Assembly: GCA_963813635.1 (NCBI GenBank)
Contig: CAWEZO010000002.1
Location: forward strand, 951,265-1,015,264
Origin: an uncultured Actinomycetes bacterium
GTDB taxonomy: Bacteria; Actinomycetota; Acidimicrobiia; IMCC26256; JBBRZM01
Length of the DNA: 64,000 nucleotides
Direction of reading: 5' to 3'
The position numbers were made by a program, and so were the translations under genes. The notes under the pieces were generated by a model that saw nothing but the letters and a program-made list of their open reading frames with translations, was not told the DNA's origin and did not search any database. This document shows positions 12,690 to 63,121 of this stretch, one piece after another (position 1 is the stretch's first letter; every line of letters begins with the position of its first letter).

Positions 12690-12832
12690 CCGACGCGTCA
12701 CACACCATCCGCTGCTTCTGGGCAGAGTTTTCGACCGTAGCGGTCGAAAACTCATCCCAGAACGGGAGCCTGGTCTTGACGCACCGAGCGCTGCGGCGTC
12801 AACCTCGTCCTGGAGTCGCGGGTAGGAGGCGG

Positions 12833-25537: not shown

Positions 25538-26281
25538 CTAGCCGTTGACTCCTTGCGCCGACCCGTGGTGCGCGTTGACGAGCTTCGTCACGCTCGCGGT
25601 CAGCTTCGATTTGAGGGTTGCGGCCCGACCGGCAGGGAGCTTGCCGTTGGTGACGGCCTGGTCGATCTTCGTGGTGGCCGTGTGGACGATCGCGTTGATG
25701 ACGGTCTGCGGTTCGACGCCCTTCGACGTCGCGACCTCGGCGACCGACTGGCCACCCTTCACCGCGGTACGCAGCGCCGGCGGCGATATGCCGATTGTGT
25801 CGGCCGCGATCTTTCCGCCTTGGTTGACCAGGTTGCGTCGGCGGCCGTGGCGCTCGGCCTTGCGGTACGCCTTGTTGAGGTGCGTGTTGTTGACGAGCTT
25901 CGTCGCTCGATCAGCGAGGTTCGCCTTGAGCTTCGCGGCCTTGTCGGCGGAGAGCTTGCCGTTGGTCACGGCCTTGTCGATCTTGGTGTTGGCTGCGTCG
26001 ACGAGCGCTTTCACGACGTCGGCTGGGTCGACGTTCTTCGACCTCGCGACATCGGCGACCGACTTGCCGCTCTTCAGGGCCGCTTTGAGGTCCGCGGTCG
26101 AGACGCCGATCTTGTCGGCTGCGATCTTGAGTGCCTGCGCCGCGAGCTTGTGCTTCAGCGTGGGGTGGGCCGAGGAGGTGGTGGAGCCGGATCCGGGGCC
26201 CGATCCTGCGGCGGATGCGACGCCCGCGCCACCGGCCACGAGCAGGCCTGCAGTGGTGAGAGCGACGAGGAACTTCTTCAT
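25538..26281 (-). CDS. secreted protein with two ~85-aa internal repeats (helical, Lys/Ala-rich)
   Basis: ATG 26281 follows GAGGAG. The signal peptide is MKKFLVALTTAGLLVAGGAGVASA. Repeat 1 is KIAADKIGVSTADLKAALKSGKSVADVARSKNVDPADVVKALVDAANTKIDKAVTNGKL.... Repeat 2 is KIAADTIGISPPALRTAVKGGQSVAEVATSKGVEPQTVINAIVHTATTKIDQAVTNGKL.... Confidence 0.7.
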   Translation of the reverse strand: MKKFLVALTTAGLLVAGGAGVASAAGSGPGSGSTTSSAHPTLKHKLAAQALKIAADKIGVSTADLKAALKSGKSVADVARSKNVDPADVVKALVDAANTKIDKAVTNGKLSADKAAKLKANLADRATKLVNNTHLNKAYRKAERHGRRRNLVNQGGKIAADTIGISPPALRTAVKGGQSVAEVATSKGVEPQTVINAIVHTATTKIDQAVTNGKLPAGRAATLKSKLTASVTKLVNAHHGSAQGVNG

Positions 26282-26440
26282 CTCGGGGGTCTCCTCAACG
26301 AGTGGATTGGTACCGCACATTCATCAGACACCCTGGATATGAGGGATCTGTGAAGCGGAGACGGGAATGTGGACAAGAAGGGTGGATCCCGTGGTTCCCT
26401 ATATGGCAGCAGGGCAGTTCGAGGTGCCCGCCGGGCTGTT

Positions 26441-27634
26441 TCAGCCCTTCTCGGCGCCCACGATGCCCACGAACGACACCATCTCGCCGGGGTACCCACC
26501 GAGGTTGTGGGTCAGGCCGAGCTTCTTGTTGGTCGTGTTGATGCGGCGGTCGGGCGGGGCCTCGCCCCGCAGCTGCAGCCAGCACTCGTACATCATGCGC
26601 AGCCCCGAGGCGCCGATCGGATGGCCGAAGCTCTTCAGGCCGCCGTCGGGGTTGACTGGAAGGTCGCCGTCGAGGTCGAAGGTGCCGGCCATCACCTCTT
26701 TCCACCCCATGCCGCGCTCCGCGAACCCGAGGTCCTCCACGAGGACGAGCTCGGTGGGTGTGAAGCAGTCGTGCACCTCTGCCAGCGCGATCTCGCGACG
26801 CGGGTCGGTCACGCCGGCCTGCTGGTACGCGTCTTCGCCGGCGCGCACGACTTCAGGGAAGGTCGTGTAGTCGTAGTCGGGATCGAGATTGCCGGAACCG
26901 GTACCGGCGACCATGGCGAGCGCCTTCACGTAGAGCGGCTTGTCGGTGTACTTGTGCGCGTCTTCGGCGCGCACCACGATCGCGGCCGCGGCGCCGTCGC
27001 CGATACCCGCGCAGTCGAAAACACCGAGCGGCCCCGCGATCGGCATCGCGTTCTTGATGACGTCCTTCGAGATCTCCTTCTGAAACTGCGCCCGCGGGTT
27101 GTGAGAGCCGTTCGAGTGGTTCTTCCACGCGATGCGCGTCAACACGTCTTTCAGCTCGTCGGGATCGACCCCGTATTTGTTCGCGTACGCCGGCACAATG
27201 AGGCTGAACATCGCCGCGGCCGTGAGGCTGCGCACGGTGCCGTCGTTGGGCGGTTGCGTCGCGGGCAGTCCCTGGTAGCCGGCGTCCTTCACTTTCTCGC
27301 CGCCGATGGCGACGGCCGTGTCGTACGCGCCGCTCGCGACCGCGTAACACGCGTTGCGCAACGCTTCGGAGCCGGTCGCGCAGAAGTTCTCGATGCGCGT
27401 GATGGGCCGGAAGTCGGTCTTGAGCGCGCGTGCGAGGGGCATGCCACTCATCGCGGAGCTGGCGACACCGAACCAGTACGCGTCGATGTCGGCCTTGGCG
27501 ATGCCGCTCGACGTGAACAGCTCCTCGGCGCAGTCGACGAGGAGGTCGTCGAGGTTCTTGTCCCAGTGCTCGGCGAACGGCGTGCACGCCATGCCGACGA
27601 TTGCGACCTTGTCCTTGATGCCGTGAGAAGCCAT
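26441..27634 (-). CDS. thiolase-fold lipid-transfer-protein type (SCP-x/Ltp-like) acetyl-CoA acyltransferase
   Basis: 397 aa with a thiolase-like pattern: VAIVGMACTPF, IENFCATGSEALRNA (nucleophile Cys), AEVHDCFT, NPDGGLKSFGHPIGASG. Confidence 0.85.
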   Translation of the reverse strand: MASHGIKDKVAIVGMACTPFAEHWDKNLDDLLVDCAEELFTSSGIAKADIDAYWFGVASSAMSGMPLARALKTDFRPITRIENFCATGSEALRNACYAVASGAYDTAVAIGGEKVKDAGYQGLPATQPPNDGTVRSLTAAAMFSLIVPAYANKYGVDPDELKDVLTRIAWKNHSNGSHNPRAQFQKEISKDVIKNAMPIAGPLGVFDCAGIGDGAAAAIVVRAEDAHKYTDKPLYVKALAMVAGTGSGNLDPDYDYTTFPEVVRAGEDAYQQAGVTDPRREIALAEVHDCFTPTELVLVEDLGFAERGMGWKEVMAGTFDLDGDLPVNPDGGLKSFGHPIGASGLRMMYECWLQLRGEAPPDRRINTTNKKLGLTHNLGGYPGEMVSFVGIVGAEKG

Positions 27635-27643
27635 GTCTCTCCC

Positions 27644-29053
27644 TCAGCCCCGAATCGGGCGGGCCTTCCAGAAATAATTGTGCATCCCCTGCACGGTGAA
27701 GAGGCGCCGGAACGTCATCTCGACCCGGTCGCCGAGCTTCACGTCTGACGCATCGCAATCGGTGAGCTCGCACGGAAAACGCCCGCCGCCGTCGAAGTCG
27801 ACGATGGCGGCGACGATCGGCGGGCTGGGCGAGTACGACACGTGGTCGACCGTGAACGTGACGATCGTCGCCGGCACGTCGGCCATCGGTGCGGCTTCCA
27901 TGTCGTCGATCGCGCCGCCCTTCCACGACACCCGTGCCGGCGGGAAGTGCATCGCTTCGGACGTGCGGTCGCGCGCCGCGACGAAGCCGAACTTCCAGTC
28001 GTGGTTGCGTCCCGCGGCCGAGGCTGACGGACGGTTGGGTTCCGGCCGGCGCGGGGGCTCGACCTCGAGCGCACCCCGCCAGCTGAGGAACTTGCTGTAC
28101 GGCAGGCCTTTGCTTCCGCTTTCGATCTGGGCTTGAACGCTGCGGGCGGGTGAGAACGACTTGATCGCGTCGGTGGTGCGGAACAATAGGACGTCGACGC
28201 CATCGGCGAGCGTGACGACCGCGATGATCTGGCCCGGCTTCGCTGTTTCGAGCGCGGCTGTGAGGAGCAGCGCCGCGTGCGCGGTGCCGGTGTTGCCCAC
28301 GGTTGCGCTCAGGTCGTTGACGAGTGTTTCCTTCGCGGTGCCGAGACGCTTCGCTGCACTCCGGACCGCGCGTGTGTGCATACCGGTGACGACGAGGCGA
28401 TCGATCTGCTCGGCCGTGACGTCAGCGGCTTTGAGCGCGGCGTTCCACGCCTGGTCGACGAGCGGCAGGTAGCGCGTCTCGCCGAAGCGTTCCTCCCAGA
28501 CGCGGGAGTGCGCGTCGCCGGGGCTCCGCCAGCGGTCGAGGAACTCCTCGGTAGCCGAGCCGCTCCCGAGATACTCGGCGATGACCGGGCCCTGCGCTTC
28601 GGTGCCGACGAGGAGCGCGGCGGCGGCGTCACCACCATCGCGTTCGTCGGCGCTGGTCGGGCGGCCGGTGCGGATATCGGAGCTGACCACCAGGGTGGCG
28701 CCGTCGTGCTCGAGCGCGCTGCGCAGCGCACCGACGGCCGACCGGGGCGCGCCGCCCATGTCGGCTGCGAACGCGGAGGAGTCGAGGCGCAGCGCGGCGT
28801 GGATCGCGGTGGCATTGGTCTTGTCGAGGTACGCGGGCACCGTGGTCGCGAAGGTGAGCGAGTCGGGCTGCACACCGCTGGCGGATCGCAACGCGAGCCG
28901 TCCGGCTTCGACACCCATGGTGGTGGTGTCTTCGTCGTATGACGCGACCGACCGTGTGCCCTTACCGCCGGCGCTCGCCATGACCTCGCCGATGGCCGCG
29001 CGTTGGAGCCGTTGATAGGGCACGTAGGCGGCGCAACTGATGATTCCTCGCAT
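27644..29053 (-). CDS. HMG-CoA synthase/FabH-like domain fused to C-terminal DUF35 OB-fold domain
   Basis: Start at ATG 29053 (MRGIISCAAYVPY...); the upstream 125 codons of track ORF 27644..29428 are Arg-rich shadow. The N-terminal ~330 aa are condensing-enzyme-like (VGNTGTAHAALLL). The C-terminal ~130 aa are DUF35 OB-fold-like (...TIVTFTVDHVSYSPSPP..VAIVDFDGGGRF...GDRVEMTF). Confidence 0.8.
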   Translation of the reverse strand: MRGIISCAAYVPYQRLQRAAIGEVMASAGGKGTRSVASYDEDTTTMGVEAGRLALRSASGVQPDSLTFATTVPAYLDKTNATAIHAALRLDSSAFAADMGGAPRSAVGALRSALEHDGATLVVSSDIRTGRPTSADERDGGDAAAALLVGTEAQGPVIAEYLGSGSATEEFLDRWRSPGDAHSRVWEERFGETRYLPLVDQAWNAALKAADVTAEQIDRLVVTGMHTRAVRSAAKRLGTAKETLVNDLSATVGNTGTAHAALLLTAALETAKPGQIIAVVTLADGVDVLLFRTTDAIKSFSPARSVQAQIESGSKGLPYSKFLSWRGALEVEPPRRPEPNRPSASAAGRNHDWKFGFVAARDRTSEAMHFPPARVSWKGGAIDDMEAAPMADVPATIVTFTVDHVSYSPSPPIVAAIVDFDGGGRFPCELTDCDASDVKLGDRVEMTFRRLFTVQGMHNYFWKARPIRG

Positions 29054-29148
29054 GCATGCAGGGAACCACGCCCTGATGCCACGACGCAAGGCGGGCGCTG
29101 CGTTTCGGCGGGGGCGGGTCGGCTCGGTGCCACTTGTAGGCTCCGGCC

Positions 29149-30399
29149 GTGCGTTTGGGAGACGTCGCCAACGCCGACGCGCAGCGTTGGGGCAAGCCAC
29201 TCGACGGGATCCGCGTGCTCGCGGCCGAGCAGATGCAGGCACTCCCCTACGCCACGCAGATGCTCGCCCGCATGGGCGCCGAGGTGGTGAAGGTCGAGCA
29301 TCCCGTCCACGGTGAGTCGGGGCGCGCGTCCACGCCGTCGATGCTCGACCCTTCGGGCCGTGCGGTCGGCGCCACGTATCTCCGCAACAACCTCGGCAAG
29401 CGCAGCGCCGGCATCGACCTGAAGACACCGGAGGGGCGTGAGCTGTTCCTGGCCTTGGTACCGCGCTTCGACGTGATCGCCGAGAACTTCAAGGCCGGCA
29501 CGATGGATCGTCTCGGCCTGGGCTACGACGTGATCGCCGCTGCCAACCCACGCGCCATCTACCTGTCGATCTCGGGATTCGGCAATACCGTCGACACGCC
29601 CTATCGCGACTGGCCCGCATACGCGTCGATCGCCGAGGCCATGTCGGGGATCTACGAGTACAAGAGCGGACCCGACCGTCCACCGGTCACGATTCCCGTC
29701 GGCGCGCTCGGTGACATCAGCTCGGCGTTGTTCGGGGTGATCGGCGTGCTTGCCGGGTTGCGGCACCGCGACCTGACCGGTGAAGGGCAGTACGTCGACA
29801 TCGCAATGCTCGACGCGATGGTTGCGATGACCGACGTGGTCACCAACTTCTGGTCGCTGGGTGTGCGGCCCGAGCCCGAGAAGGAGCTCGAGGTGATCTG
29901 CGAGGGCTTTCGCGCGTCCGACGGGTACGTGGTGGTGCAGATCATCCGCGAGCACCAGTTCGAACGGCTCGCGGATCTGGTGGGCGCGCCCGAATGGAAG
30001 GACGACCCGCGCTTCGCGACGCGCGCCGGTTGGGCGCCGCTGCTCGAGAGCGTGATTCGTCCTGCGGTGGAGTCATGGGCGTCGACGCGCACGAAGCTCG
30101 AAGCCGCTCAGGAGCTGACCGCGGCCGGGATCGCGGCGGGCCCGTCCAACGCGGCACCGGATGTGATCGCCGATCCGCACGTGGCCGCGCGCGACATGCT
30201 CGTGGAGATGCCGCGCACCGACGGCGTGGCCGAGCCCGTCCTCATTCCCGGTAACCCGGTGAAGATGTCGAAGGTCGCCGAGGGTCCGGAAACGCGGGTG
30301 CCGTGGGTGGGCGAACACACCGACGACGTGCTGCGCGCCGAGCTCGCCCTCGACGACACCCGACTCGCGGCCCTGCGCGCCGCCGGCGTCATCGCGTAG
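29149..30399 (+). CDS. CoA-transferase family III (CaiB/BaiF) protein
   Basis: 416 aa. Motifs LDGIRVLAAEQMQALPYATQMLARMGAEVVKVE, ...DVIAENFKAGTMDRLGLGYD..., ...ISGFG.... Confidence 0.85.
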   Translation: MRLGDVANADAQRWGKPLDGIRVLAAEQMQALPYATQMLARMGAEVVKVEHPVHGESGRASTPSMLDPSGRAVGATYLRNNLGKRSAGIDLKTPEGRELFLALVPRFDVIAENFKAGTMDRLGLGYDVIAAANPRAIYLSISGFGNTVDTPYRDWPAYASIAEAMSGIYEYKSGPDRPPVTIPVGALGDISSALFGVIGVLAGLRHRDLTGEGQYVDIAMLDAMVAMTDVVTNFWSLGVRPEPEKELEVICEGFRASDGYVVVQIIREHQFERLADLVGAPEWKDDPRFATRAGWAPLLESVIRPAVESWASTRTKLEAAQELTAAGIAAGPSNAAPDVIADPHVAARDMLVEMPRTDGVAEPVLIPGNPVKMSKVAEGPETRVPWVGEHTDDVLRAELALDDTRLAALRAAGVIA

Positions 30400-30408
30400 C
30401 TACCCCAG

Positions 30409-30454
30409 CGTTTGTGCAATCGGGCCCCCTATAGGGGCACCGATTGCACAAACG
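30409..30454. repeat. 46-bp palindromic intergenic repeat, family A, copy 1
   Basis: CGTTTGTGCAATCGGGCCCCCTATAGGGGCACCGATTGCACAAACG, between the CaiB-type gene stop (30399) and the ACAD start (30485). Confidence 0.9.
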
Positions 30455-30484
30455 GGGGGTGGCCAACCGTAAGATCGCAGCGGC

Positions 30485-31690
30485 ATGGACTTCGAGTTCT
30501 CTCCTGAGCAGCGGGCGTTCGCGGCCGATGTCGAGGTGTTTCTCGACGAGCACGACGACCCCGAGGTCTTCGACGTCACACGCGAGAACATGGCCCAGAT
30601 CGTCGACACGCCGAAGCGGCGCGCCTTCATGCGCGAGCTCGGCCGGCACGGGTGGCTCGGGCTCACCTGGCCCAAGGAGTACGGCGGCTCCGAGGGCGAA
30701 GGCGTCTACGAATACCTGCTGAACGAAGCGCTGGCGCGGCGGGGCGGACCGCAGATCGGCAAGGGCGTCGGCATCATCGGCAAGACGGTCATCGCGCACG
30801 GCAACGACTTCCTCAAGGAGAAGTTCCTGCCGATGATCCTCAACAACGACGTCGAGTTCGCCGTCGGCTACAGCGAGCCCAACGCGGGCTCCGATGCTGC
30901 ATCGATGCGCTTGAAGGCCGAGCCCGCCGAGCGCGACGGCAAGACCGGCTGGCTGCTCAACGGGCAGAAGACCTGGACGACGTCGGCCCACTTCGCCGAG
31001 TGGTACTGGCTCGGCACGCGCACCGACCCAAACAACAAGCACCGCGGCATCACGTTGATGCTCGTGCCGCTCGACGATCCCGGTGTGACGATCCGTGAGA
31101 TCTGGACGATGGGTGACGAACGCACCAACGAGGTGTTCATCGAAGACGTGTTCGTGCCCGACGAGTACGTGGTCGGCGAAGTCAACCACGGCTTCCAGTA
31201 CATCTCGCAGGCGCTCGACCTCGAGCGCTTCACGATGTTCACGTACTCACCGATGCAGCAGCGCCTCGACGTGCTGATCGACTACGTGCGCACCGCCACT
31301 CGTGACGGCAAGCCGCTGCGCGACGATCCGGTGATCCGCCACCGGCTGGCGCGACTCGTGACCGACGGCGAGGTCGCACGCGTGCTCGGGCTGAAGGTGG
31401 TCGCGGCCTCGATGAAGTCGGAGCACGACCGCAGCATCCCCCCGCCCACGGTCGAGTCGTCGAAGTACAAGCTGTTCGCGACCGAGTGGTCGCGGCGGCT
31501 CGCCGACGCGTCGATGGACATCGGCGCGCCCGGCAGCCAGTTGCGCGTGCACACGAAGACCGCGCCGATGGAGGGCCGGGCCGAGTCGACCTATCGCTAC
31601 ACCGTCATCGACACGATCGGCGGCGGCTCGTCGGAGATCCAGAAGAACATCATCGCCCGCCGGGGCCTCGGACTGCCGAAGAACTTCTAG
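30485..31690 (+). CDS. acyl-CoA dehydrogenase
   Basis: 401 aa with the ACAD pattern (WLGLTWPKEYGGSEG, VGYSEPNAGSDAAS, ...TIGGGSSEIQKNIIA). Confidence 0.9.
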   Translation: MDFEFSPEQRAFAADVEVFLDEHDDPEVFDVTRENMAQIVDTPKRRAFMRELGRHGWLGLTWPKEYGGSEGEGVYEYLLNEALARRGGPQIGKGVGIIGKTVIAHGNDFLKEKFLPMILNNDVEFAVGYSEPNAGSDAASMRLKAEPAERDGKTGWLLNGQKTWTTSAHFAEWYWLGTRTDPNNKHRGITLMLVPLDDPGVTIREIWTMGDERTNEVFIEDVFVPDEYVVGEVNHGFQYISQALDLERFTMFTYSPMQQRLDVLIDYVRTATRDGKPLRDDPVIRHRLARLVTDGEVARVLGLKVVAASMKSEHDRSIPPPTVESSKYKLFATEWSRRLADASMDIGAPGSQLRVHTKTAPMEGRAESTYRYTVIDTIGGGSSEIQKNIIARRGLGLPKNF

Positions 31691-32857
31691 ATGGCCTCGT
31701 CTCCACTCACGGGCATCACGGTGCTCGACCTCGCAAGCGTCGGCCCCGCGGCGCGCACGTCGCGCTGGCTCGCCGACTACGGCGCGATCGTCATCAAGGT
31801 CGCGCCCACACCGAAGCACGGCGCGGTGCAGATCACGCCGCCGTTCTACGCGTACAGCGGGCACCGGGGCATGAAGCGCGTGCAGCTCGACTTGAAGTCG
31901 GACGCCGGACGCGACGCGTTCCTGCGATTGGCGGGCGGCGCCGACGTTGTGATCGAGAGCTTCCGGCCCGGTGTCGTCGACCGGCTCGGCATCGGCTACG
32001 ACGCGGTACGCGCCATAAACGCAGGTGTCGTCTACTGCTCGACCACTGGCTACGGCCAGGACGGCCCGCACGCGCAGTGGGCCGGTCACGACCTCAACTA
32101 CCTCGCGGTCGGCGGCTACCTCGACTGTTCGGGCCGCGACGCCGAGGGCGGTCCGGCGTTGCCGGGCGCCACGATCGCCGACAGCGCGGGCGGCGGCATG
32201 CACGCGGCGATGGCGGTCCTCGCCGCGCTCGTCGCCCGGGCCGGCACTGGTGAGGGTGCGCATCTCGACGTGTCGGTCGCCGACGGCGTCGTGGCCCTGA
32301 TGTCGCTCTACATCGACGAGTACCTTGCCACCGGCGAGCTGCCGGGACCGCGCCACAACATCTTGACCGGCCGGTACGCGTGTTACGACATGTACCGCTG
32401 CGCCGACGATCGCTGGGTGGCCGTCGGCGCGATCGAGCCCGTGTTCTACGCCAACCTCTGCCGCGCGCTCGGCTGTGAGCAATGGACCGGGCACCAGACC
32501 GACGACGCGGCGCAAGACGAGATCCGGGCTGCGTTCCGGGCGGCGTTCGCGACCCGGTCGCGTGACGAGTGGGTCGCCGCGCTCGGTCCCGCCGACACGT
32601 GCGTCTCGCCGGTCGCGTCGGTAGCCGAGCTGGTCGACGACGAGCACCTCAACGCGCGCGGAGACTTTGTCGACGCCAAGCACGACATGCACGGCCCGTT
32701 CCGGCAGGTCGGCTGGGTGCTCGCGGGTATGGACCGGGCGCAGGACGCACCGCTTGTTCGCGACCCCGACGTCACCGATACCGACGAGCTACTGAGCGCG
32801 GCGGGCTACAGCGACGCCGAGATCGCGGCCCTGCGCGAGCACGGAGCGGTGGCATGA
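31691..32857 (+). CDS. CoA-transferase family III protein, alpha-methylacyl-CoA racemase-like
   Basis: 388 aa. Motifs LTGITVLDLASVGPAA, VVIESFRPGVVDRLGIGY and AGHDLNYLAVGGYL. The last resembles the racemase motif GHDINYLA as I recall it. Confidence 0.8.
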   Translation: MASSPLTGITVLDLASVGPAARTSRWLADYGAIVIKVAPTPKHGAVQITPPFYAYSGHRGMKRVQLDLKSDAGRDAFLRLAGGADVVIESFRPGVVDRLGIGYDAVRAINAGVVYCSTTGYGQDGPHAQWAGHDLNYLAVGGYLDCSGRDAEGGPALPGATIADSAGGGMHAAMAVLAALVARAGTGEGAHLDVSVADGVVALMSLYIDEYLATGELPGPRHNILTGRYACYDMYRCADDRWVAVGAIEPVFYANLCRALGCEQWTGHQTDDAAQDEIRAAFRAAFATRSRDEWVAALGPADTCVSPVASVAELVDDEHLNARGDFVDAKHDMHGPFRQVGWVLAGMDRAQDAPLVRDPDVTDTDELLSAAGYSDAEIAALREHGAVA

Positions 32858-33363
32858 GCGACCTGCCCGACGACGTCACCGAGCTCATCGGCAAGACGCA
32901 GTACGAGATCACGGGCGACTTCCCCGTCGAACGCGGCTACATCTGGACGTCGTGCGCGTCCGTCGAGAACGGCAACCCGCTCTTTTGGGACGACGCGGTC
33001 GCCGCCGAGCTGACCGACGGCCCCATCGCGCCGCCGACGATGCTGTCGGTGTGGTTCCGTCCGCATCACTGGGCGCCCGGACGCACGACCGAGGTGCTGC
33101 CGCTGCAGGTCCACTTCGACTTGAAGGAACGCTTCGGATTGCCCGAGGCGGTCATGACGGACAACACGATCATCTTTCACACGCCCGTCCGGCCGGGCGA
33201 CGTGCTGCGCACCCACCAGGTGCTGCGCTCGGTCAGCGAGCCGAAGACCACGAAGCTCGGTTCGGGCCGGTTCTGGGTGATCGACGTCGAGTACTTCAAT
33301 CAACGCGACGAGCTCGTGGGTGTCGAGTCGTACACCGGTTTCGGCTATCGGAGCGGCGAGTGA
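32854..33363 (+). CDS. hotdog-fold (MaoC N-terminal/FAS1-like) dehydratase subunit
   Basis: Start at ATG 32854, overlapping the previous stop (ATGA). 169 aa. It resembles the ChsH1-like partner of a heteromeric MaoC hydratase (...ENGNPLFWDD..., ...FWVIDVEYFNQRDELVG). Confidence 0.7.
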   Translation: MSDLPDDVTELIGKTQYEITGDFPVERGYIWTSCASVENGNPLFWDDAVAAELTDGPIAPPTMLSVWFRPHHWAPGRTTEVLPLQVHFDLKERFGLPEAVMTDNTIIFHTPVRPGDVLRTHQVLRSVSEPKTTKLGSGRFWVIDVEYFNQRDELVGVESYTGFGYRSGE

Positions 33364-33848
33364 TGGAGCCCGACATCAAACAGCTCACGCTTGCCGACGT
33401 GCACGACGGCGACGAGCTCCCGCCGCTCGCCTACGACGTGACCGCGACCACCGTCGTGCTCGGCGCGCTGGCGGCGCGCGACTGGCGGCCGATGCATCAC
33501 GACTACGACTTCGCGGTCAACCGCAACGGCACGCAGAACATCTTCTTGAACACGCCCAACCAGGCCGGGTGGTTCGAGCGCTACCTCACCGACTGGAGTG
33601 GACCGAAAGGTCGCCTCGGCCGGATGAAGTTCCGCATGCTCGGCTCGGTGTTCCCCGGCGACACGATGGTGCTCGCAGGGACCGTCGAACAGATCGAGAC
33701 CGACGATGCCGGGTGCGGCTGGGTCTCGCTGCTCGTCACGTTGTCGGTCGGCGTCGAGACGAAGACCGACTGCTCGGTGCGGCTCGCGTTGCCGGTCTCG
33801 GATGCCGATAACCCGTGGGCGCGCAGCGGCGGGTCGTGGAAGCCGTGA
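33363..33848 (+). CDS. MaoC-like (R)-specific enoyl-CoA hydratase subunit
   Basis: Start at ATG 33363 (GTGATG overlap). 161 aa with a hotdog pattern (...RDWRPMHHDYDFA..., ...GDTMVLAGTVEQIE...). Confidence 0.75.
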   Translation: MEPDIKQLTLADVHDGDELPPLAYDVTATTVVLGALAARDWRPMHHDYDFAVNRNGTQNIFLNTPNQAGWFERYLTDWSGPKGRLGRMKFRMLGSVFPGDTMVLAGTVEQIETDDAGCGWVSLLVTLSVGVETKTDCSVRLALPVSDADNPWARSGGSWKP

Positions 33849-33879
33849 CCGCCGGATCACGTCGACGAGGAGCGCGCTG

Positions 33880-35010
33880 ATGGCAGTCGATCTCGACTTC
33901 ACCGAGGAGCAGGAGATGCTGCGCGAGATGGTGCGCGGCGTCTGTGGCTCGTACGCGTCCGTCGATACCGTGCGGGAGCTCGAAGACGACCCGGTCGGTT
34001 ACTCGCGCGAGTTCTGGAAGCAGCTCGCGGCGCTCGACCTCATCGGGCTCATGGTGCCGGCCGAGTACGGCGGCTCCGGCATGACACTGCTCGAAGGCGC
34101 GGTCGTGTACGAAGAGCTGGGCCGCGCGCTCACGCCGTCACCACACTTCGTGAGCGCGGTCATGGCCGCCGGCGTGCTGTTGCGCGCGGGCAGCGACGAA
34201 CAGCAGCGCGAGCTGCTGCCGAAGATCGCGCGCGGCGAAGCGATCGTTACCACGGCGTGGCTCGAGCCCGAGCACGGCTTCGGCCCCGCCGGTGTCCAGC
34301 TGCGAGCGACACCCGACGGCGACGGCTTTCGTCTCGACGGCGAGAAGTGGCATGTGCCGTTCGCCGGCGCCGCGACGCATCTGCTCGTGCCGGCGCGCAC
34401 CGGCGACGGCGTGCACGACATCGACCTGTTCCTCGTACAGCCGTCGGCCACCGGCGTCACGATGGAGCAACAGCACACGATCGCTTCCGACACGCAGTAC
34501 GCGGTGACGTTGGACAGTGTGAGTGTGACGGCCGGCGATCGGATCGGCGCAGCGGGCTCGGGCTGGGGGACGTGGCACGACACGATGCTCGATGGCGTCA
34601 TCCTGCTCGCCGCGCAGGCCGTCGGCGGTGCGCAGTACGCCCTCGACATCACGGTGCAGTACGCCAAGGATCGCGAGCAGTTCGACAAGCCGCTGGGCGC
34701 GTTCCAGGCGATCGCGCATTACCTCGCGGACGCGTCGACCGCCGTCGACGGGGCGACCGTCCTCGTGCACGAGGCCGCGTGGGCGAGGGCGGACGGCAGG
34801 CCGGTCGACCGGCTCGCGCCGATGGCGAAGCTGTTCGCGTGCCAGACGTTCCGCGATGTCACCGCGATGGCACAGCAGGTGTTCGGCGGCGTCGGCTTCA
34901 CCCTCGACTACGACATCCAGCTCTACTTCCGGCGGGCGAAGGAGCTGCAAATCTCGTGGTGGGACGACCGCTACCTCGAGGACCTCATCGCCGCGACCGT
35001 GCTCGACTGA
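33880..35010 (+). CDS. acyl-CoA dehydrogenase
   Basis: Start at ATG 33880 (MAVDLDFTEEQEMLREMVR...). 376 aa with ACAD C-terminal pattern QVFGGVGFTLDYDIQLYFRRAK. Confidence 0.85.
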   Translation: MAVDLDFTEEQEMLREMVRGVCGSYASVDTVRELEDDPVGYSREFWKQLAALDLIGLMVPAEYGGSGMTLLEGAVVYEELGRALTPSPHFVSAVMAAGVLLRAGSDEQQRELLPKIARGEAIVTTAWLEPEHGFGPAGVQLRATPDGDGFRLDGEKWHVPFAGAATHLLVPARTGDGVHDIDLFLVQPSATGVTMEQQHTIASDTQYAVTLDSVSVTAGDRIGAAGSGWGTWHDTMLDGVILLAAQAVGGAQYALDITVQYAKDREQFDKPLGAFQAIAHYLADASTAVDGATVLVHEAAWARADGRPVDRLAPMAKLFACQTFRDVTAMAQQVFGGVGFTLDYDIQLYFRRAKELQISWWDDRYLEDLIAATVLD

Positions 35011-35138
35011 GCCACGGCAGCGGGCGAGCCGGTCCGAACGCCGGGGCGAGGGGTGCTTGACCTTCCTCGCGAATACCCGCATGCTGCACCGTCAAAGTGC
35101 ACCGGATTGGGTTGTGATCGGCTCTACAGAGGGGGTCT

Positions 35139-35807
35139 GTGGTGGATGATTCGATGAAGTGGGAGCGGTACGGCGCGCTCGCCGGGATCTTGGCCATCAT
35201 CCTCATCGTCGCCTCCGTCGTGGTCGCCGGGTCGCCGCCGAAGACGTCTGATTCGGCGGAAAAGATCTTGAAGTACTACCGCGACAACGAGGGCGGGCTC
35301 AAAGCCTCGGCGGTTCTCGGCGGGTTGGTGACGATACCGATCTTGTGGTGGGCAGCAACGCTGTGGGCAACGTTGCGCCGGGCCGACGGCGGCCAACCCG
35401 GCCTCGCGGTGGCAGCCGTGCTCGGCCTGGTGCTCACGGGGACGCTGCAGGCCGTTTCGGGCGCGATCAGCGCCACGGTGGCGCTCGAGCTCAAAAATGT
35501 CGGGCCGGCCGAGGCGAAGTTCTTCTACCTCCTGTCGTTCGGGCTGGGAGCAGCCGGGGCATTCGGGGTCGCAGTGCTCGTCCTCGCGACCTCGGCTGTG
35601 TCGTTGCGCACGAAAGTGTTTCCGGGGTGGTTGGGTGGGGCCGGCCTCGTGCTCGGCGCGGCGCTGATTGTGAGCGGGGCCTCGATCGCGAGCACGAGCG
35701 ACGGGCTCGCCGCACTGGGCTTGGTGTCGATTCTGCTCTGGGCCCTGTGGGTCATCGTCCTGAGCGTGCTGATGTTCCGCGCCAAGGAACCCACAACGGC
35801 GGTCTGA
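35139..35807 (+). CDS. hypothetical polytopic membrane protein (6 TM)
   Basis: 222-aa track ORF. GTG 35139 lies ~11 nt after GAGGGGG; the alternative start is ATG 35154. The protein is strongly hydrophobic and has no recognised domain. Confidence 0.6.
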   Translation: MVDDSMKWERYGALAGILAIILIVASVVVAGSPPKTSDSAEKILKYYRDNEGGLKASAVLGGLVTIPILWWAATLWATLRRADGGQPGLAVAAVLGLVLTGTLQAVSGAISATVALELKNVGPAEAKFFYLLSFGLGAAGAFGVAVLVLATSAVSLRTKVFPGWLGGAGLVLGAALIVSGASIASTSDGLAALGLVSILLWALWVIVLSVLMFRAKEPTTAV

Positions 35808-35975
35808 CCAAGTCAGCAGAGCTCGACGTAGAGGTCCGTGATCGCGCCGGCATCATCGACGGTGAAGCAATCGATCGTGCGAACGGCGTCGTCGCTCATC
35901 GGGCTGCGACCGACGAGCTCGACCGTCGCGGTGCGCGCGCCGGGCTCGGTCTCGACCCGCTCGACCGCGCGTCGT

Positions 35976-37229
35976 TCACGCGCGGACCAGACGCACCGGC
36001 AGGTGGCGAATCGTCGTGTGCTTGTTGCTCCTCCCCCACTCCACCGGGCCGGTCGCCTCGATCCCCGAGCAGCGAGGCAGCAACTCCTCGTACATGATGC
36101 GCATCTCGCGCCGCGCCAGCGCGGCACCGAGACAGTGGTGCAGCCCGTGACCGAACGCGAGATGGGCGTTGGGTTGGCGTGTCGCGTCGAAGCGGAACGG
36201 AGCGTCGAACACGTCCTCGTCGCGATTCGCCGACGAGTACCAGTGCGTCGTCTTCTCCCCTGCCCGGATCATCTGACCGTGAAGCTCCACGTCGCGGGTC
36301 GCGGTGCGCCGGTTGTACGCGGTGGGACTCGTCCACCGCAGCATCTCCTCGACGGCCGTCGGCAGCAGCCCGCGGTCGCCCCGTAAGCGCGCCAGCTCGT
36401 CGGGATGTTGGAGCAGCGCGAGCAACCCGCCCGCGATCGCGTTGCGCGTCGTCTCGCTTCCGGCCACGAACAGCAGCGAGAAGAACGCCTGGAGCTCGTC
36501 GACTGACATCGCCTCGACGGCGCCGCCATCGGCGTCCGCGGTTGCGTGCACCACGGTGCTGAACATGTCGTCGGCCGGGTGTTCACGCTTCTCGGCGATG
36601 AGCGCGTCGGCGTAGACACGCATGCCGATCGCGGCCTCGAGCATCCGGTCGCTCGTGCCGGCGAGGTCGCGGTCGGAGTAATCGGTGATGACCGTCGTCC
36701 ACTCGAACAGCTGGTGCCGGTCGGCCTGGGAGACACCCATGATCTGCGCGATCGTCTGGAGCGGCAGCTCGGCGGCGACGTCGACGAGGAAGTCGACCTC
36801 ACGACGCTCGAGCGCCGCATCGACGATCGCGCGATTACGGGCGCGCAACCACTCGTCGAGCGCGTCGATCGCACGCGGCGTGAACGCGCGGTTGACGAGT
36901 CCACGGATCTTCGTGTGCTCGGGTGGGTCCGACATGTTGATCATCACGCCGGTCGCGATCCCGGGTGGCAGATCCTCGAGGATCGTGCCGCCGCCGGTGC
37001 GGCCCGGGCCGGTCTCCGACGAGAACGTGGCCGCGTCGCGCAGCACGTCGAGCACGTCGGCATGGCGGCTGATCACCCAGAAGCCTTCGCCGTCGGGCGT
37101 GTGCGCAGTGGGCTGGTGCCACCAGACCGGCGCTTCGCGTCGCAGCATGGTGAACGCGTCGTGCGGAAAACCCCCGGCAAAGCGATCGAGGTCGGTCAGG
37201 TCGATCAAATCAAGCCCGGTTTCAGTCAT
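35976..37229 (-). CDS. cytochrome P450
   Basis: Start at ATG 37229 (MTETGLDLIDL...). 417 aa. The I-helix is FVAGSETT, followed by EEMLRW (ExxR), and the heme loop is FGHGLHHCLGAALAR. The start overlaps the stop of the upstream CoA-transferase by 8 nt. Confidence 0.9.
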   Translation of the reverse strand: MTETGLDLIDLTDLDRFAGGFPHDAFTMLRREAPVWWHQPTAHTPDGEGFWVISRHADVLDVLRDAATFSSETGPGRTGGGTILEDLPPGIATGVMINMSDPPEHTKIRGLVNRAFTPRAIDALDEWLRARNRAIVDAALERREVDFLVDVAAELPLQTIAQIMGVSQADRHQLFEWTTVITDYSDRDLAGTSDRMLEAAIGMRVYADALIAEKREHPADDMFSTVVHATADADGGAVEAMSVDELQAFFSLLFVAGSETTRNAIAGGLLALLQHPDELARLRGDRGLLPTAVEEMLRWTSPTAYNRRTATRDVELHGQMIRAGEKTTHWYSSANRDEDVFDAPFRFDATRQPNAHLAFGHGLHHCLGAALARREMRIMYEELLPRCSGIEATGPVEWGRSNKHTTIRHLPVRLVRA

Positions 37230-38455
37230 GTGCCGCTCCGAACGCGCCGGCAGCGGCGAGGCGGGCAACTGCGCCGGCGTCGTAGCCGAGCAGGTCATGC
37301 AGGATCGCGTCCGCATCTTCATCGCGCCGCGGGGCGCGGCGGTGCGAGGCGCGCCGCTCGCCGACGCGGACCGGGCCGGCGACCTGGCGCACCGTGCCCC
37401 ACGCGGGATGGTCGGTCTCGACGACGAGGCCGCGCGCCTGGGTCTGCGGGTCGGTAAGGGCCGCGGCAACGTCGTTGACCGGCCCGCACGGCACGCCGGC
37501 CGCGGTCAACACGTCGAGCCAGTGTGACGTCGACTCGCGGCGGAGCGCGTCGGCGATGATCCCGAGCACCTCGCCCCGATGCTCGTGCCGGTCGGCGAAC
37601 GTCGCGAATCGGGGGTCGGTCGCCAGTTCGGGACGGCCGAGCGCCTCGGGCAGCGGACGCCAGAACTTCTCCTTCGGGCAGGCGACCACGATCCAGCCGT
37701 CCGCGGTCTGAAAGTTCTGGAACGGCACGAGCGTCGGATGCGCGGACTGTGCCGTGCGCACCGGCTCGAACCCGGCCGTCAGGTGCCACACCGCGGGATA
37801 CGAGAGCATCGCGATCGCGGTGTCGAACAGCGACACGTCGCAGTCGGTGCCGACGCCGTCGCGTCGCGCCGGCGTGGACCCCCGCGAGCAGTGCACATGC
37901 GGCCGCGAGCCCGCCGGAGAAGTCGACGAGCGACAGCCCCGACTTCGTGGGCGGCCCGTCGGGCTCGCCGGTGAGGCTCATCCAGCCCGCCATCCCCTGC
38001 AAGATGTAGTCGTATCCGGGTTCGGCCGCGCGCGGCCCGGTCATCCCGAAGCCCGACAGCGAACAGCACACGATCGCCGCGTTGACGGGCGCGAGGTCGT
38101 CGTAGCGGATGCGCAGACGCGCCGGCACGTCGCCGCGCAGGTTGGAGTAGACCGCGTCGGAGACTCGCACGAGCTTTTCGAATACCTCACGGCCCGCCGG
38201 CACCGACAGGTCAAGGCTCACGCTGCGCTTGTTTCGATTGAACGCCTCGAAGAAGAGGTTGTCGCCGTCTTCGTCGCCCTGCGCGTACGGCGGCACCGAT
38301 CGACCGACGTCACCGCCGGTGCCCGGGTCTTCGATCTTGATCACGTCGGCGCCGAGATCGGCCAGCTGCATCGAACCGAACGGCCCGGCGCCGAACTGCT
38401 CCACTGCGATGATCCGGACGTCTTCGAGCGGCAGTCGGCGCCCGCCTTCGGTCAC
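37222..38455 (-). pseudogene. CoA-transferase family III (CaiB/BaiF) protein, one frameshift
   Basis: Joins track ORFs 37319..38551 (from GTG 38455: LEDVRIIAVEQFGAGPFGSMQLADLGADVIKIE...) and 37222..37896 (ARRDGVGTDCDVSLFDTA...). There is an extra G near 37870. The corrected length is 410 aa. Confidence 0.8.
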
Positions 38456-39604
38456 GACTTGGCGTTGTACACGTCGGGCCCGAAGCACTTGAGTCCCGGC
38501 GCCCCCGCGAAACCGAGGTGACTGAGGCCGAACAGGTCCTCCATGCTGCACAGCAACGCGTAGTGGTTGTACGGCGTCGCGTTGGTGCTCGCGGCCTTCA
38601 CGAACGGCGACAGCACCACGGCACCAATTCGTCCCCCGCCCGGCGTCGGCACGTTGGGCGACGGCGGCGTGTTACAGCAAGCGGACGAATCGTCGAGCTC
38701 GGCCTCGTCGAACGTGATGATCAGCAGGCCGCTCTGCTTGTACGCGGGCGACGCCAGGATCTTCGGCACCCACTGCTTGAGCCACGTGTCGGCCGACGCG
38801 AGCCCGCCGGGCTGGCCGTCGACACACGGCGCGTCGTGGCCGTCGTGACACAGGTTGGGGCTGATGTACACGAGGTTCGGTGTGCTCGCGGCCGATGAGA
38901 GGTCGGTTTCGAGACGATCGAGCCCGACCGCGTTCTTCTTGCAAGCCGGCGAATCGATGATGGAGTGGAAATAGACGAACGGGTTGTGCCGCGTTCGCGT
39001 ACTGGTCACCCTTCCGGGCGAGGATGGTCGGGTCGGCCTCGCCGATCGGCGGGTGGCGGCACGTCTTCGGCTCGGTCGCGGAGTTGCCCATGTCTTCCTG
39101 GTAGGTGCGCCAGGTACGACCCTTCGCGGTGAGCTGGTCGGCGACGGTCTTCACCGACGCGGGGTACACGCAACCGTTGCCGAGCGCTTGACCGAGCTCA
39201 CCGGTGCCGGTGCTCTTGAAGTCGGTGTAGGTGATGCAGTCGGCTCGCGTCGCCGGGTCGGGCGCCTGGCCGCTGATCTGGGCGATGTAGTTGCCGAGCG
39301 ACACGTGCGCGATGCCGAAGTACTGCGTGAGCAGCTCGCCCTGCGCGGTGAGGGTCTTGGAGAGGTACGGCGCGGGCGAGCTCGGGCCCCACGTCTGGTC
39401 GTAGTTCTTGTTCTCGAGGTTGATGACGAAGACGTGCTGGATCTTCGGCGCCGCGGTCTTCGTCGATGACGTCGTCGTCGAGGCAGCAGACTTGGACGAC
39501 GACGTCGGCTGCTTCGCCTTGCTCGACCCACCCGATGAGCACGCCGCGGCTGCGAGCGCGATCGCCGCCGCGATCACGCAGGTCGATCGGCCCCGTGCCC
39601 TCAT
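38452..39604 (-). pseudogene. secreted phosphoesterase-family lipoprotein (PLC/acid-phosphatase type), one frameshift
   Basis: The lipobox is IALAAAACSSG. Motifs are HVFVINLENKNYDQTWG, then (after an extra A near 38992) TRHNPFVYFHS and PNLCHDGHD. Joins ORFs 38672..39604 and 38452..39009. The stop overlaps the GTG of the CoA-transferase. Confidence 0.75.
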
Positions 39605-39653
39605 GGTCGCCCTCGCCTTCGTCGTGGACTCTGCTTTCTAGCCTCGATGACGC

Positions 39654-39950
39654 TTGTCCGTCATCCGCGGGTTCGCCGACATCGGGCGCTATAGATTCAC
39701 ATCCGTGCAGGAGAAGGTGCTCTTCGGGATCGGCTATCCGGTGGCGATCGTCGTGATCTCGCGGTGGATCCCGGTCGTGCGGGAGCGTCGCACCACCTGG
39801 TTCGTGGCCCACGAGCTCGCGGTGGCGGCCATCGTCGCCGGCTGGGTGTTGCGCCGCCGCACGCAGGGCGTCGTCGTCAACGGCTCGTGGCTCGCGATCG
39901 CGGCCGCGTGGTACACGATCGCAGGCGTGCGCCGGCAGCGCCAGGATTGA
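39654..39950 (+). CDS. hypothetical small membrane protein (3 TM)
   Basis: 98-aa track ORF with hydrophobic segments and host-like codon bias. No recognised domain. The start is uncertain. Confidence 0.4.
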   Translation: MSVIRGFADIGRYRFTSVQEKVLFGIGYPVAIVVISRWIPVVRERRTTWFVAHELAVAAIVAGWVLRRRTQGVVVNGSWLAIAAAWYTIAGVRRQRQD

Positions 39951-39956
39951 GCCCGC

Positions 39957-40006
39957 GAACTTGCGTCAACAGCCGGTGTCACATCCCGGTTCTCGACGCA
40001 AGAATG
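39957..40006. repeat. palindromic intergenic repeat, family B, copy 2 (inverted, left arm shortened)
   Basis: ...CTTGCGTCAACAGCCGGTGTCACATCCCGGTTCTCGACGCAAGAATG. It matches the reverse complement of copy 1 and lies between convergent genes (39950 / 40022). Confidence 0.75.
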
Positions 40007-40021
40007 AATTGTGGACCGCGG

Positions 40022-42205: not shown

Positions 42206-42302
42206 GCTCACTCCTTCGGGGGAGGGAAGGATGGAGGTGGGCGGGTGCGCCATCTTCGTCCACGCAGTCGAACCGCCGTCAATCGTGCAGTCTTCCCGCA
42301 CG

Positions 42303-42818
42303 ATGACCTTCGTCACACACGAGGAGGGACCGGTGACCGAACCACGGGCGGACCGGCCGCACATGCCGGAGTATGGGATCGCCGGACCCGACGAGGGTGA
42401 CGGGTTGCTGTCATGGTCGTGGGCGCGCGACCGGCTCGCCGCCGCGCACGATTACTGGGTGGCCACGGTGAGTCGCGACGGCGTGCCGCACGCGATGCCG
42501 GTCTGGGGTCTCTGGCGGGATGACTGCTTCTTCTTCAGCACCGGCGGCGAGTCACGCAAAGCGCGCAACTTGTCGACGAATGCACGCTGTGTCGTGCACA
42601 CCGAGAACGGGCCCGACCCGGTCGTTGTCGAAGGGTCGGCAACTCGCGTCGCGGACCCGACCGAGCTGCGCCCGCTTCTCGAGGCGTTCGAGGCCAAGTA
42701 CACGGAGCCGGTACCCGACCCCGACAACAATCCGGTCTTCCGGTTGCAGCCACGGCGGGCCTTCGGATGGACGAAGGCGTTCCCCGACTCGGCGACACGC
42801 TGGTCGTTCGACGCGTAA
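42303..42818 (+). CDS. pyridoxamine 5'-phosphate oxidase (PPOX)-fold family protein
   Basis: Real part of track ORF 42204..42818. Contains YWVATVSRDGVPHAMPVWGLWRDDCFFFSTGGESRKARNL. The start is ATG 42303 or 42363. Confidence 0.7.
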   Translation: MTFVTHEEGPVTEPRADRPHMPEYGIAGPDEGDGLLSWSWARDRLAAAHDYWVATVSRDGVPHAMPVWGLWRDDCFFFSTGGESRKARNLSTNARCVVHTENGPDPVVVEGSATRVADPTELRPLLEAFEAKYTEPVPDPDNNPVFRLQPRRAFGWTKAFPDSATRWSFDA

Positions 42819-42827
42819 GCCCGAGAG

Positions 42828-42873
42828 CGTTTGTGCAATCAGGTGCCCTATAGGGGCACCGATTGCACAAACG
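42828..42873. repeat. 46-bp palindromic intergenic repeat, family A, copy 2
   Basis: CGTTTGTGCAATCAGGTGCCCTATAGGGGCACCGATTGCACAAACG, between convergent genes (42818 / 42884). Confidence 0.9.
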
Positions 42874-42883
42874 GTGGGTTGGG

Positions 42884-43342
42884 CTAGGTGAGGTAGCGGC
42901 TCACGGTGTCGACGACGGCCGCGGGCTTCTCCGAACCCTCGAGCTCGATCGTCACCCGTGTCACCACTTGCACACCACCCGGCACCTCGGTCGCCGAGAG
43001 CAGCTGGCCCCGACCACGCACACGCGACCCGACCGGCACCGGTGCGGGAAAACGCACGCGGTCGACGCCGTAGTTGAGGCCCATGGTGATCCCGTGCACC
43101 ACCGCGATCTGGGGCAGGAACATGCCCGCGAGCGACATCGTGAGATAGCCGTGCGCGATCGGCGTGCCGAACGGCCCTTGCTTCGCGCGTTCGACGTCGG
43201 TGTGGATCCACTGACGATCGCCGGTCGCGTCGGCGAACTGATTGATCTGCTCCTGAGTGATCTCGACCCAATCACTGGTGCCGAGCTCCTGACCGGCTGC
43301 GCCGAGAAGCTCTTTCGGAGAACCGAAGACGGTGGGCGGCAT
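42884..43342 (-). CDS. MaoC-like dehydratase (hotdog fold)
   Basis: 152 aa. Motifs INQFADATGDRQWIHTDVERAKQGPFGTPIAHGYL.... Confidence 0.85.
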   Translation of the reverse strand: MPPTVFGSPKELLGAAGQELGTSDWVEITQEQINQFADATGDRQWIHTDVERAKQGPFGTPIAHGYLTMSLAGMFLPQIAVVHGITMGLNYGVDRVRFPAPVPVGSRVRGRGQLLSATEVPGGVQVVTRVTIELEGSEKPAAVVDTVSRYLT

Positions 43343-43388
43343 GCGCCGGTTGTAGCAGACAACCCGGCGACCGACACCCCCAAACGCG

Positions 43389-43441
43389 CGTTCACTCGAG
43401 GCATTCTCAGCAAATACCTGGTGAAATCCTCGAGTAAACGA
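43389..43441. repeat. palindromic intergenic repeat, family C, copy 1
   Basis: CGTTCACTCGAGG CATTCTCAGCAAATACCTGGTGAAAT CCTCGAGTAAACGA. A second copy is at 47270-47322 with the centre in opposite orientation. Confidence 0.8.
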
Positions 43442-43464
43442 GAAAGGCGCGAGCGAAGGAGCCG

Positions 43465-53589: not shown

Positions 53590-53594
53590 CGCGA

Positions 53595-54925: not shown

Positions 54926-54970
54926 CGTTTGTGCACCAGCGGACGCTCTGGGGCCACTTTTGCACAAACG
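54926..54970. repeat. family A palindromic repeat, diverged copy
   Basis: CGTTTGTGCA ccagcggacgctctggggccacttt TGCACAAACG. The outer arms are intact and the centre has diverged. It is intergenic, between 54903 and 54987. Confidence 0.6.
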
Positions 54971-54986
54971 GTGTTCGGGCTCGGCG

Positions 54987-56869: not shown

Positions 56870-56924
56870 CTCATTCTTGCGTCGCGAACCGGGGTGACAT
56901 CCCGGCTGCTGACGCAAGAATGAG
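56870..56924. repeat. palindromic intergenic repeat, family B, copy 3
   Basis: CTCATTCTTGCGTCGCGAACCGGGGTGACATCCCGGCTGCTGACGCAAGAATGAG, in the divergent intergenic region between 56794 and 56996. Confidence 0.85.
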
Positions 56925-56995
56925 TTGCGGTGCGGTCGCCGGGGCGCCTTTCGACCGCTCCTCAGGTCGGGTGAAGACGTGCCGATACAAGCGCC

Positions 56996-60560: not shown

Positions 60561-60641
60561 ACGGCTGCCAACGCACCGTTTGTGTGGGTTTGATAGGGTG
60601 CGGCGCAAAGGCAGGATCGGCCGCGTTACGAGGGGGCAGCG

Positions 60642-63062: not shown

Positions 63063-63108
63063 CGTTTGTGCAATCAGGTGCCCTATAGGGGCCACGATTG
63101 CACAAACG
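63063..63108. repeat. 46-bp palindromic intergenic repeat, family A, copy 3
   Basis: CGTTTGTGCAATCAGGTGCCCTATAGGGGCCACGATTGCACAAACG, between 63017 and 63122. Confidence 0.9.
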
Positions 63109-63121
63109 GTGGGGTGGGGCG

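Follow-up and report, generated by a model that had tools for sequence, protein, structure and literature searches.

A near-perfect palindrome of 46 bp recurs between genes in the DNA analysed here, a stretch of 64 kb with 68% GC (the window) whose closest relatives are MAGs of Acidimicrobiia. The question raised by this locus is whether the repeat, which we call family A, is a mobile element, a transcription terminator, the operator of a regulator or a signal that acts in the RNA. Acidimicrobiia are abundant in soil and water and are mostly uncultured, and intergenic hairpin repeats, which are well studied in Proteobacteria, are barely described in them. The reading that we regard as the probable one is a REP/TRIT-like family of hairpin repeats, which would form an RNA stem-loop at the 3' ends of genes and whose cores would be overwritten within the genome.

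Copies in the window

The initial annotation had claimed palindromes at 30409, 42828 and 63063, and also a diverged copy at 54926 that keeps the arms. The three palindromes were borne out by a degenerate 29-mer pattern, which matched at all three positions on both strands, since the element is palindromic, and gave 0 matches in shuffles. When the window was searched for the arm CGTTTGTGCA with 0 mismatches, the arm was found only as inverted pairs, at the three full sites and at 54926/54961, and the fourth copy was thus located as claimed. A covariance model built from 20 copies reported exactly four elements in the window and no others. The elements, their tails and one remnant are as follows (A1 and A2 are the core subtypes defined below; scores are those of the covariance model).

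Copy 1, subtype A1: 30409..30454, + strand, 77.4 bits on + and 64.5 on -; 9 nt past the stop of a family-III CoA-transferase gene (30399) and 30 nt ahead of the start of an acyl-CoA dehydrogenase gene (30485)
G-rich tail of copy 1: 30455..30462, + strand, GGGGGTGG
Copy 2, subtype A1: 42828..42873, + strand, between convergent genes; 9 and 10 nt from the stops of a PNPOx-like gene (42818) and a MaoC-like gene (42884-42886, - strand)
G-rich tail of copy 2: 42874..42883, + strand, GTGGGTTGGG, directly next to the stop codon of the MaoC gene (- strand)
Copy 4, subtype A2: 54926..54970, + strand, 55.8 bits, CGTTTGTGCA-CCAGCGGACGCTCTGGGGCCACTTT-TGCACAAACG; between tandem - strand genes, 16 nt past the stop of a 477-aa gene (54987) and 22 nt ahead of the start of a cupin gene (54903)
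Degenerate tail of copy 4: 54971..54980, + strand, GTGTTCGGGC
Deletion remnant (site rel): 60568..60592, + strand, left C-rich tail CCAACGCAC, CGTTTGT, right tail GTGGGTTTG
Copy 3, subtype A1 with an imperfect inner stem: 63063..63108, + strand, 81.9 bits; between tandem - strand genes, 13 nt past the stop of a glyoxalase-family gene (63122) and 45 nt ahead of the start of an amidohydrolase gene (near 63017)
G-rich tail of copy 3: 63109..63119, + strand, GTGGGGTGGGG, facing the glyoxalase stop codon

The first description of the element, with arms of ~21 bp around a TATA centre, fits copies 1 and 2 but not copy 3, because of its imperfect inner stem. Copy 4, asymmetric and with a weak inner stem, had been described as a diverged copy; it is no decayed element but belongs to the asymmetric subtype A2, which recurs in related genomes. 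At copy 1 the tail pairs with the CCCC of the left spacer, and a longer stem results.

Three observations concern the surrounding genes. The cluster at ~26400-35000 and 37000-42400 resembles actinobacterial degradation of steroid or lipid side chains, with an acyl-CoA dehydrogenase (ChsE4-like according to some sources), a ChsH2-type OB-fold protein and thiolases, as well as several family-III CoA-transferases, MaoC hydratases and an MMPL transporter. The amidohydrolase gene next downstream of copy 3 is frameshifted by a 2-bp insertion (CG) at 62822-62823, seen in comparison with both close strains described below. It is intact at 400 aa in the corresponding loci of these strains (L070 and L071); the window gene is either a pseudogene or a product of sequencing error. 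A long ORF at 52696-54510 on the - strand was considered as a gene and rejected, as it is antisense to real ABC-transporter genes.

Anatomy and folding of the element

The family A unit comprises ~56 nt and is constructed from a 10-nt terminal inverted repeat, a 26-nt core and a G-rich tail on one side. In the alignment of 20 copies, oriented by the tail, the 10-nt termini CGTTTGTGCA ... TGCACAAACG are invariant or nearly so, the nearly invariant inverted repeat as a whole spans 10-13 nt, and the arm helix is 92.7% paired, four of its pairs having no variation at all. The core is variable, centred on TATA and more or less self-complementary. Its inner stem is only ~60% paired in any fixed register, because bulges differ between copies and no single register fits every one of them, and some double-sided changes are seen. 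The covariation score of the 20 copies is 0.137-0.160, compared with 0.06-0.11 in shuffles and 0.04-0.12 when the alignment was slid. Such invariant termini point to a recognition of the sequence itself, beyond its structure alone.

Two core subtypes can be distinguished. A1, CGTTTGTGCA-ATC(A/G)GG..CCC-TATA-GGGGC..CGAT-TGCACAAACG, is a good palindrome, and A2, CGTTTGTGCA-CCAGCGG....-TATA-GGGGCCACTTT-TGCACAAACG, is asymmetric, so that the orientation of an A2 copy can be read. The element can also be viewed as two inverted 21-nt units around a 4-nt TATA spacer, in which case a unit alone has no hairpin. On the left, the similarity begins at C/TGTTTG in most independent copies, and the 20-copy alignment contains no conserved tetranucleotide of the GTAG type to the left of CGTTTG; the GTAG seen at copy 1 comes from the stop codon that ends the gene before it. 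The tail, GTGGGKKGG, is conserved and present on one side only. This motif occurs 5 times in the window: copies 2 and 3 each have it as their tail, and the other three occurrences (26160, 29543 and 30303) are unattached to any family A element.

The prediction that the repeat yields a very stable RNA hairpin applies to copies 1-3 (z from -5 to -8.5) and fails for copy 4 (z -0.6). Folded as RNA with flanks of 15 nt, copies 1, 2 and 3 reach -55, -48 and -40 kcal/mol, with z of -8.0, -8.5 and -5.3, respectively, and copy 4 reaches only -27 kcal/mol. As single-stranded DNA, the bare copies 1-4 fold with -24.7, -24.1, -18.0 and -12.0 kcal/mol. Since A2 copies fold poorly yet are retained, the strength of the hairpin is not strictly selected.

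Placement and orientation

As had been stated, the copies are strictly intergenic (4/4 in the window), and each lies 9-16 nt from a stop codon. Called genes leave only ~9% of the syntenic locus L071 uncovered, and therefore four intergenic copies out of four are not due to chance. When the sites of related genomes are included, a stop codon stands within 9-26 nt at 11 of the 14 family A sites. The density is one copy per 6-16 kb in the regions read. The neighbouring genes are functionally unrelated to each other: besides glyoxalase, cupin, PNPOx and DUF6777 proteins, several others belong to lipid or CoA metabolism.

The plus-strand polarity attributed to all copies holds in the window, where the + strand scores 10-19 bits above the - strand, but it is not a rule. 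Four copies would share one orientation by chance in 1 of 8 cases, three of the four follow minus-strand genes, and a further site just past the window end, seen in relatives and called X, has the reversed orientation. What the sites have in common is a different relation. If c1-c4 denote the sites of copies 1-4, the tail is directed towards a stop codon at c2, c3, c4 and X, at the further sites n1, n3, m27 and m63 and, more distantly, at nz and n4. The same applies to site rel, which has tails on both sides, and copy 1 is the exception. Hence the family A tail usually points to the upstream gene, whose mRNA consequently reads stop codon, C-rich stretch and hairpin in this order.

Distribution among relatives

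An exact-pattern scan over one genome per species found 5 copies on 5 contigs of the MAG SMAG_U3005, which is 91.6% identical to the window; one of them (L005) is orthologous to window copy 3 and the other 4 belong to loci that lie beyond the window region. A sixth relative copy, in the MAG nzgw82, has a complementary inner stem of different sequence. The scan of metagenomes with the pattern gave 60 loci, mostly unrelated low-GC palindromes that share merely TTGTGCAATC...GATTGCACAA. Two high-GC soil contigs, L063 and L027, keep TTGTGCAATC/GATTGCACAA around different but self-complementary inner stems and look like members of the family, with L060 and L020 as weaker candidates.

Syntenic DNA of close strains was reached through protein homologues and cluster members. 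These strains are JGI Ga0673031_0000722 (L067, L072 and L070; ~95% nucleotide identity), ENA ERZ25039533 contig_29804 (L075, L074 and L071; ~94%) and, as a third, ENA ERZ25039539 contig_22929 (L073); below, the first two are called the JGI strain and the ENA strain. Each of these two carries six copies in ~40 kb. All the window sites are occupied in the strains of 94-95% identity, and the element is present also in the 91.6% relative. By this comparison, the family A sites are old and stable.

In agreement with the initial annotation, the element could not be assigned to any named repeat family. Rfam 15 gave no match at the gathering threshold, and at E<10 only spurious matches to miRNA hairpins; a plasmid BLAST, a scan of viral contigs and a literature string search for the sequence likewise returned no family A match. 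Family A is a previously uncatalogued, lineage-specific member of a familiar class, the bacterial intergenic hairpin repeats.

Other palindromes were met in more distant relatives. At L068:9960-9990 and L069:9960-9990 (~80% relatives), the short, conserved palindrome TCTGACG-N-CGTCAGA replaces the family A element upstream of the orthologous acyl-CoA dehydrogenase gene; it may be the operator of a regulator that was lost where the gene was fused into the upstream operon. An unrelated near-perfect palindrome of 72 nt lies between genes at L068:15843-15914, an indication that hairpin repeats confined to single lineages are widespread in this group.

Core subtypes follow the genome

The subtypes at the orthologous sites are distributed as follows.

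JGI strain: A2 at c1, c2, c3, c4, rel and X
ENA strain: A1 at each of c1-c4; A1 and A2 at rel, 27 nt apart; X not covered
Window: A1 at c1-c3; A2 at c4; element at rel deleted; X outside the window
SMAG_U3005: A1 at c3, A2 at X; c1, c2, c4 and rel not found

Counted over elements, the ratio of A1 to A2 is 0/6 in the JGI strain vs 5/1 in the ENA strain (one-sided Fisher p ~0.008). Judged from three metagenome-derived assemblies and 4-6 sites, the core subtype appears to track the genome and not the site.

Individual comparisons are consistent with this. At c1, the flanks in the window and in the JGI strain are near-identical, yet more than 10 of the 46 positions of the element differ; the ENA strain has kept the core of the window at this site, but its 12-nt left spacer and the stop codon differ. 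It follows that the pieces are recombined, and the junctions fall within the conserved termini or beside them. Possible donors can be found in the same genomes. For example, the cores of c2 and c4 in the JGI strain are 1 nt apart and have the unusual centre GACGCTCT in common, and a single nucleotide also separates the cores of c1 and X in the JGI strain and those of c4 and c2 in the ENA strain. The copy L006:5082 is a hybrid with one A2-type arm and one A1-type arm. Because the subtype follows the genome and near-identical donors exist in the same genome, these alignments indicate that cores are copied from one element to another within a genome, that is, a concerted evolution of the family A core.

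A length change of another kind is seen in the ENA strain to the right of the copy-4 element, where a 7-nt microsatellite (GCGTGCG/GTGCGGC, ~5 units) at L071:12251-12295 expands the intergenic region; neither the window nor the JGI strain has this microsatellite.

The relic site

A possible relic had been noted at ~60577-60612. It is real, and smaller than described: only CGTTTGT (60577-60583) and the flanking tails are left, so that the window reads CCAACGCAC-CGTTTGT-GTGGGTTTG, with 7 nt of a terminus. The JGI strain has one full element here, CCAACCCAC-(46 nt)-GTGGGTTGG, and the ENA strain has two. Aligned with these strains, the window state is best described as a deletion that left 7 nt of the element and no clean empty site, an instability of the kind expected for long palindromes. 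In the JGI strain, the tails on both sides form an inverted repeat and extend the structure to a 64-nt hairpin (-30 kcal/mol as DNA). Among the window and the close strains, rel is the only site where the number of elements varies, being 0, 1 or 2.

Other repeats in the window

A second family of palindromes, family B, is 51 bp long (CATTCTTGCGTC...GACGCAAGAATG, centre GTGACAT). It was found at these positions.

Family B in the window: 486-536, 39956-40006 and 56872-56922
Family B in relatives: L067:14225-14275, L071:14184-14234 and L073/L074 at ~14985-15030

Its placement resembles that of family A: the distance to stop codons is 5-30 nt, and one copy separates two convergent genes. The occurrence of both families in the same genome means that the genome contains several REP-like families. 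The right flank of family B is purine-rich; a tail common to both families was considered and set aside, as only one B copy, copy 1, is clearly G-rich there and the link is weak. Family-B copy 3 is adjoined by a 1.3-kb segment (56926-58260) with a secretory-lipase (LIP) gene (56996-58261), which neither the JGI nor the ENA strain has; in the JGI strain, the B copy is missing here too. The segment was examined as a possible carrier of a transposase, and secretory lipase but no transposase was found. The surroundings of this copy are an indel hot spot beside a palindrome.

A third palindrome, in single copy, covers 47 bp at 12716-12762 (TTCTGGGCAGAGTTTTCGACCG-TAG-CGGTCGAAAACTCATCCCAGAA), with a TetR-family gene (stop 12687-12689) on one side and a Rieske-domain gene on the other. 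An ORF at 12080-13921 spans it and seems to join the TetR and Rieske domains, despite the TGA at 12687-12689. Finally, a tandem 75-bp duplication of 91% identity at 5806-5955 and a 240-nt direct repeat of 74% identity with a spacing of 315 nt at 25574-26128 are probably repeated protein segments.

Possible function and alternative explanations

According to the reading that we prefer, transcription through the element would place a very stable stem-loop in the 3' end of the mRNA of the upstream gene. There, as its position and stability suggest, the stem-loop would serve as a barrier to exonucleases; alternatively, it may provide a partial boundary of transcription or expression, as REP elements do. 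The site would be retained, and its core would be overwritten by a copy from another site of that genome, the breakpoints falling within or close to the conserved termini, leading to a homogenisation of subtypes within the genome. As for the mechanism, which we infer, the overwriting could be due to gene conversion over short tracts, to RecA-independent template switching at extruded hairpins or to an element-specific enzyme.

A termination signal would have the same position. Family A could be a lineage-specific bidirectional terminator, perhaps aided by a factor with affinity for the conserved stem or for the C-rich box, and we consider this improbable. The copies do lie 9-26 nt from stop codons, copy 2 stands between convergent genes, canonical terminators with a U-tract are not enriched here (3 found vs 5.1 expected), and there is a precedent in the mycobacterial repeat TRIT (PMC3152330). 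On the other hand, neither strand of family A has a U-tract, the flanks being G- or C-rich, and a terminator scan of 30000-43500 misses copies 1 and 2; mycobacterial RNA polymerase is reported to require a U-tract in vitro (PMC3993855). Whether TRIT terminates transcription is in doubt as well, since few mapped 3' ends fall on its predicted sites (bioRxiv 10.1101/2022.06.01.494293). Moreover, A2 copies fold weakly, and copies 1, 3 and 4 stand between close genes of the same strand, where a complete stop would silence the downstream gene: the 22-45 nt to the next start leave no room for a promoter, and a full terminator is therefore unlikely at these copies. By position and predicted structure, the role of family A is probably that of a stabiliser or partial barrier rather than of a full terminator.

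It is also conceivable, but unlikely, that family A is a selfish element of the MITE or REPIN type with no role for the host; a transposase acting in trans would then read the termini and the tail, and the proximity to stop codons would reflect tolerated or targeted insertion. Invariant termini around a variable core are what one would expect, the two subtypes resemble competing master sequences, two tandem copies occur at rel in one strain, and a related MAG has the element at dispersed sites. The asymmetric tail recalls the strand-specific, hairpin-recognising HUH/Y1 transposition of IS200/IS605 elements and RAYTs. Nevertheless, there was no new insertion among strains at 94-95% identity, and no transposase domain was found among the called genes of the window and ~300 kb of related loci, which extends to the syntenic loci the earlier statement that no transposase lies nearby. 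In L006, what two copies close to each other enclose is a small ORF (no Pfam match) and a tRNA-Leu gene, not a RAYT. The conserved GTAG is lacking, and target-site duplication, for which the copies were checked, left no consistent direct repeat; GCGTCA flanks element and tail at c3 and X only, and at both it includes the stop codon of the neighbouring gene.

The operator of a dimeric DNA-binding protein, put forward in the initial annotation, is a very improbable reading. A regulon bound through two conserved half-sites would account for inverted 10-nt half-sites that are invariant around a variable spacer, and several flanking genes act in lipid or CoA metabolism. But the half-sites are 26 bp apart, the copies lie downstream of stop codons, in one case (copy 2) between convergent genes with no promoter, other neighbours (glyoxalase, cupin, PNPOx and DUF6777) are unrelated, and no promoter-like sites were seen in 30000-43500. 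In addition, the spacer is self-complementary in distant copies of unrelated sequence (L002 and L063), and an operator needs no such pairing.

A further reading assumes that the termini and the G-rich tail are the site of a dedicated, putative enzyme or RNA-binding factor that copies cores into occupied sites. Such a factor would explain both the distribution of subtypes by genome and the similar placement of two unrelated palindrome families; we rate it as a long shot.

Comparison with known systems

REP and REPIN elements are mobilised by RAYT transposases in Proteobacteria (PMC3116915, PMC3337134). Like them, family A is short, imperfectly palindromic and intergenic, and it is frequently located behind genes or between two convergent ones; several families per genome, persistent sites and populations with 'master' variants are further features in common. 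Unlike them, it has no 5' tetranucleotide of the GTAG type and has a one-sided G-rich tail, and it looks like a single 46-bp palindrome more than like the two-hairpin doublet of a REPIN. No RAYT was found in ~300 kb of related DNA, the host belongs to Actinomycetota, where such systems are little described, and the core appears to be replaced at occupied sites, no spread through fresh insertion having been seen among the strains.

TRIT, the 'Tuberculosis Rho-independent terminator' of the RNIE paper, occurs in 147 copies at mycobacterial gene ends, where a recognising factor was suggested; it is reportedly restricted to Mycobacterium and overlaps the stop codon at about -8 (PMC3152330). Both repeats are actinobacterial, conserved in sequence and palindrome, bidirectional, tight to gene termini and without a classical U-tract, and a recognising factor is suspected for both. 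The difference, the two being compared by description, is that family A starts 9-26 nt past the stop codon without any overlap. By analogy, TRIT is the nearest actinobacterial counterpart of family A, which we file neither in TRIT nor in REP/REPIN.

Bacterial MITEs such as Correia and ERIC have two terminal inverted repeats and affect mRNA ends. Family A has terminal inverted repeats as well, forms a hairpin when transcribed and is intergenic. Unlike these MITEs, it is much shorter, without a consistent target-site duplication, and it shows almost no presence/absence polymorphism in close strains; no parent IS with matching ends was found for it. With canonical intrinsic terminators it shares a GC-rich stem-loop just past the stop codon, but it has no U-tract, several copies lie inside apparent operons, and its sequence is shared far beyond structural need.

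Implications

Family A supplies candidate 3'-end signals in a region of the genome without classical terminators, and, being compact, it may serve to type strains and to mark the break-points of assemblies in these MAGs. If a dedicated factor does exist, family A would be either a REPIN-like system of Actinomycetota that works by replacement or a 3'-end signal that depends on this factor. With such an enzyme or factor, biology of the REP/RAYT type would reach a new phylum; if there is none, family A would be a routine repeat family. Its invariant termini and overwritten core would make it a small, tractable case of concerted evolution.
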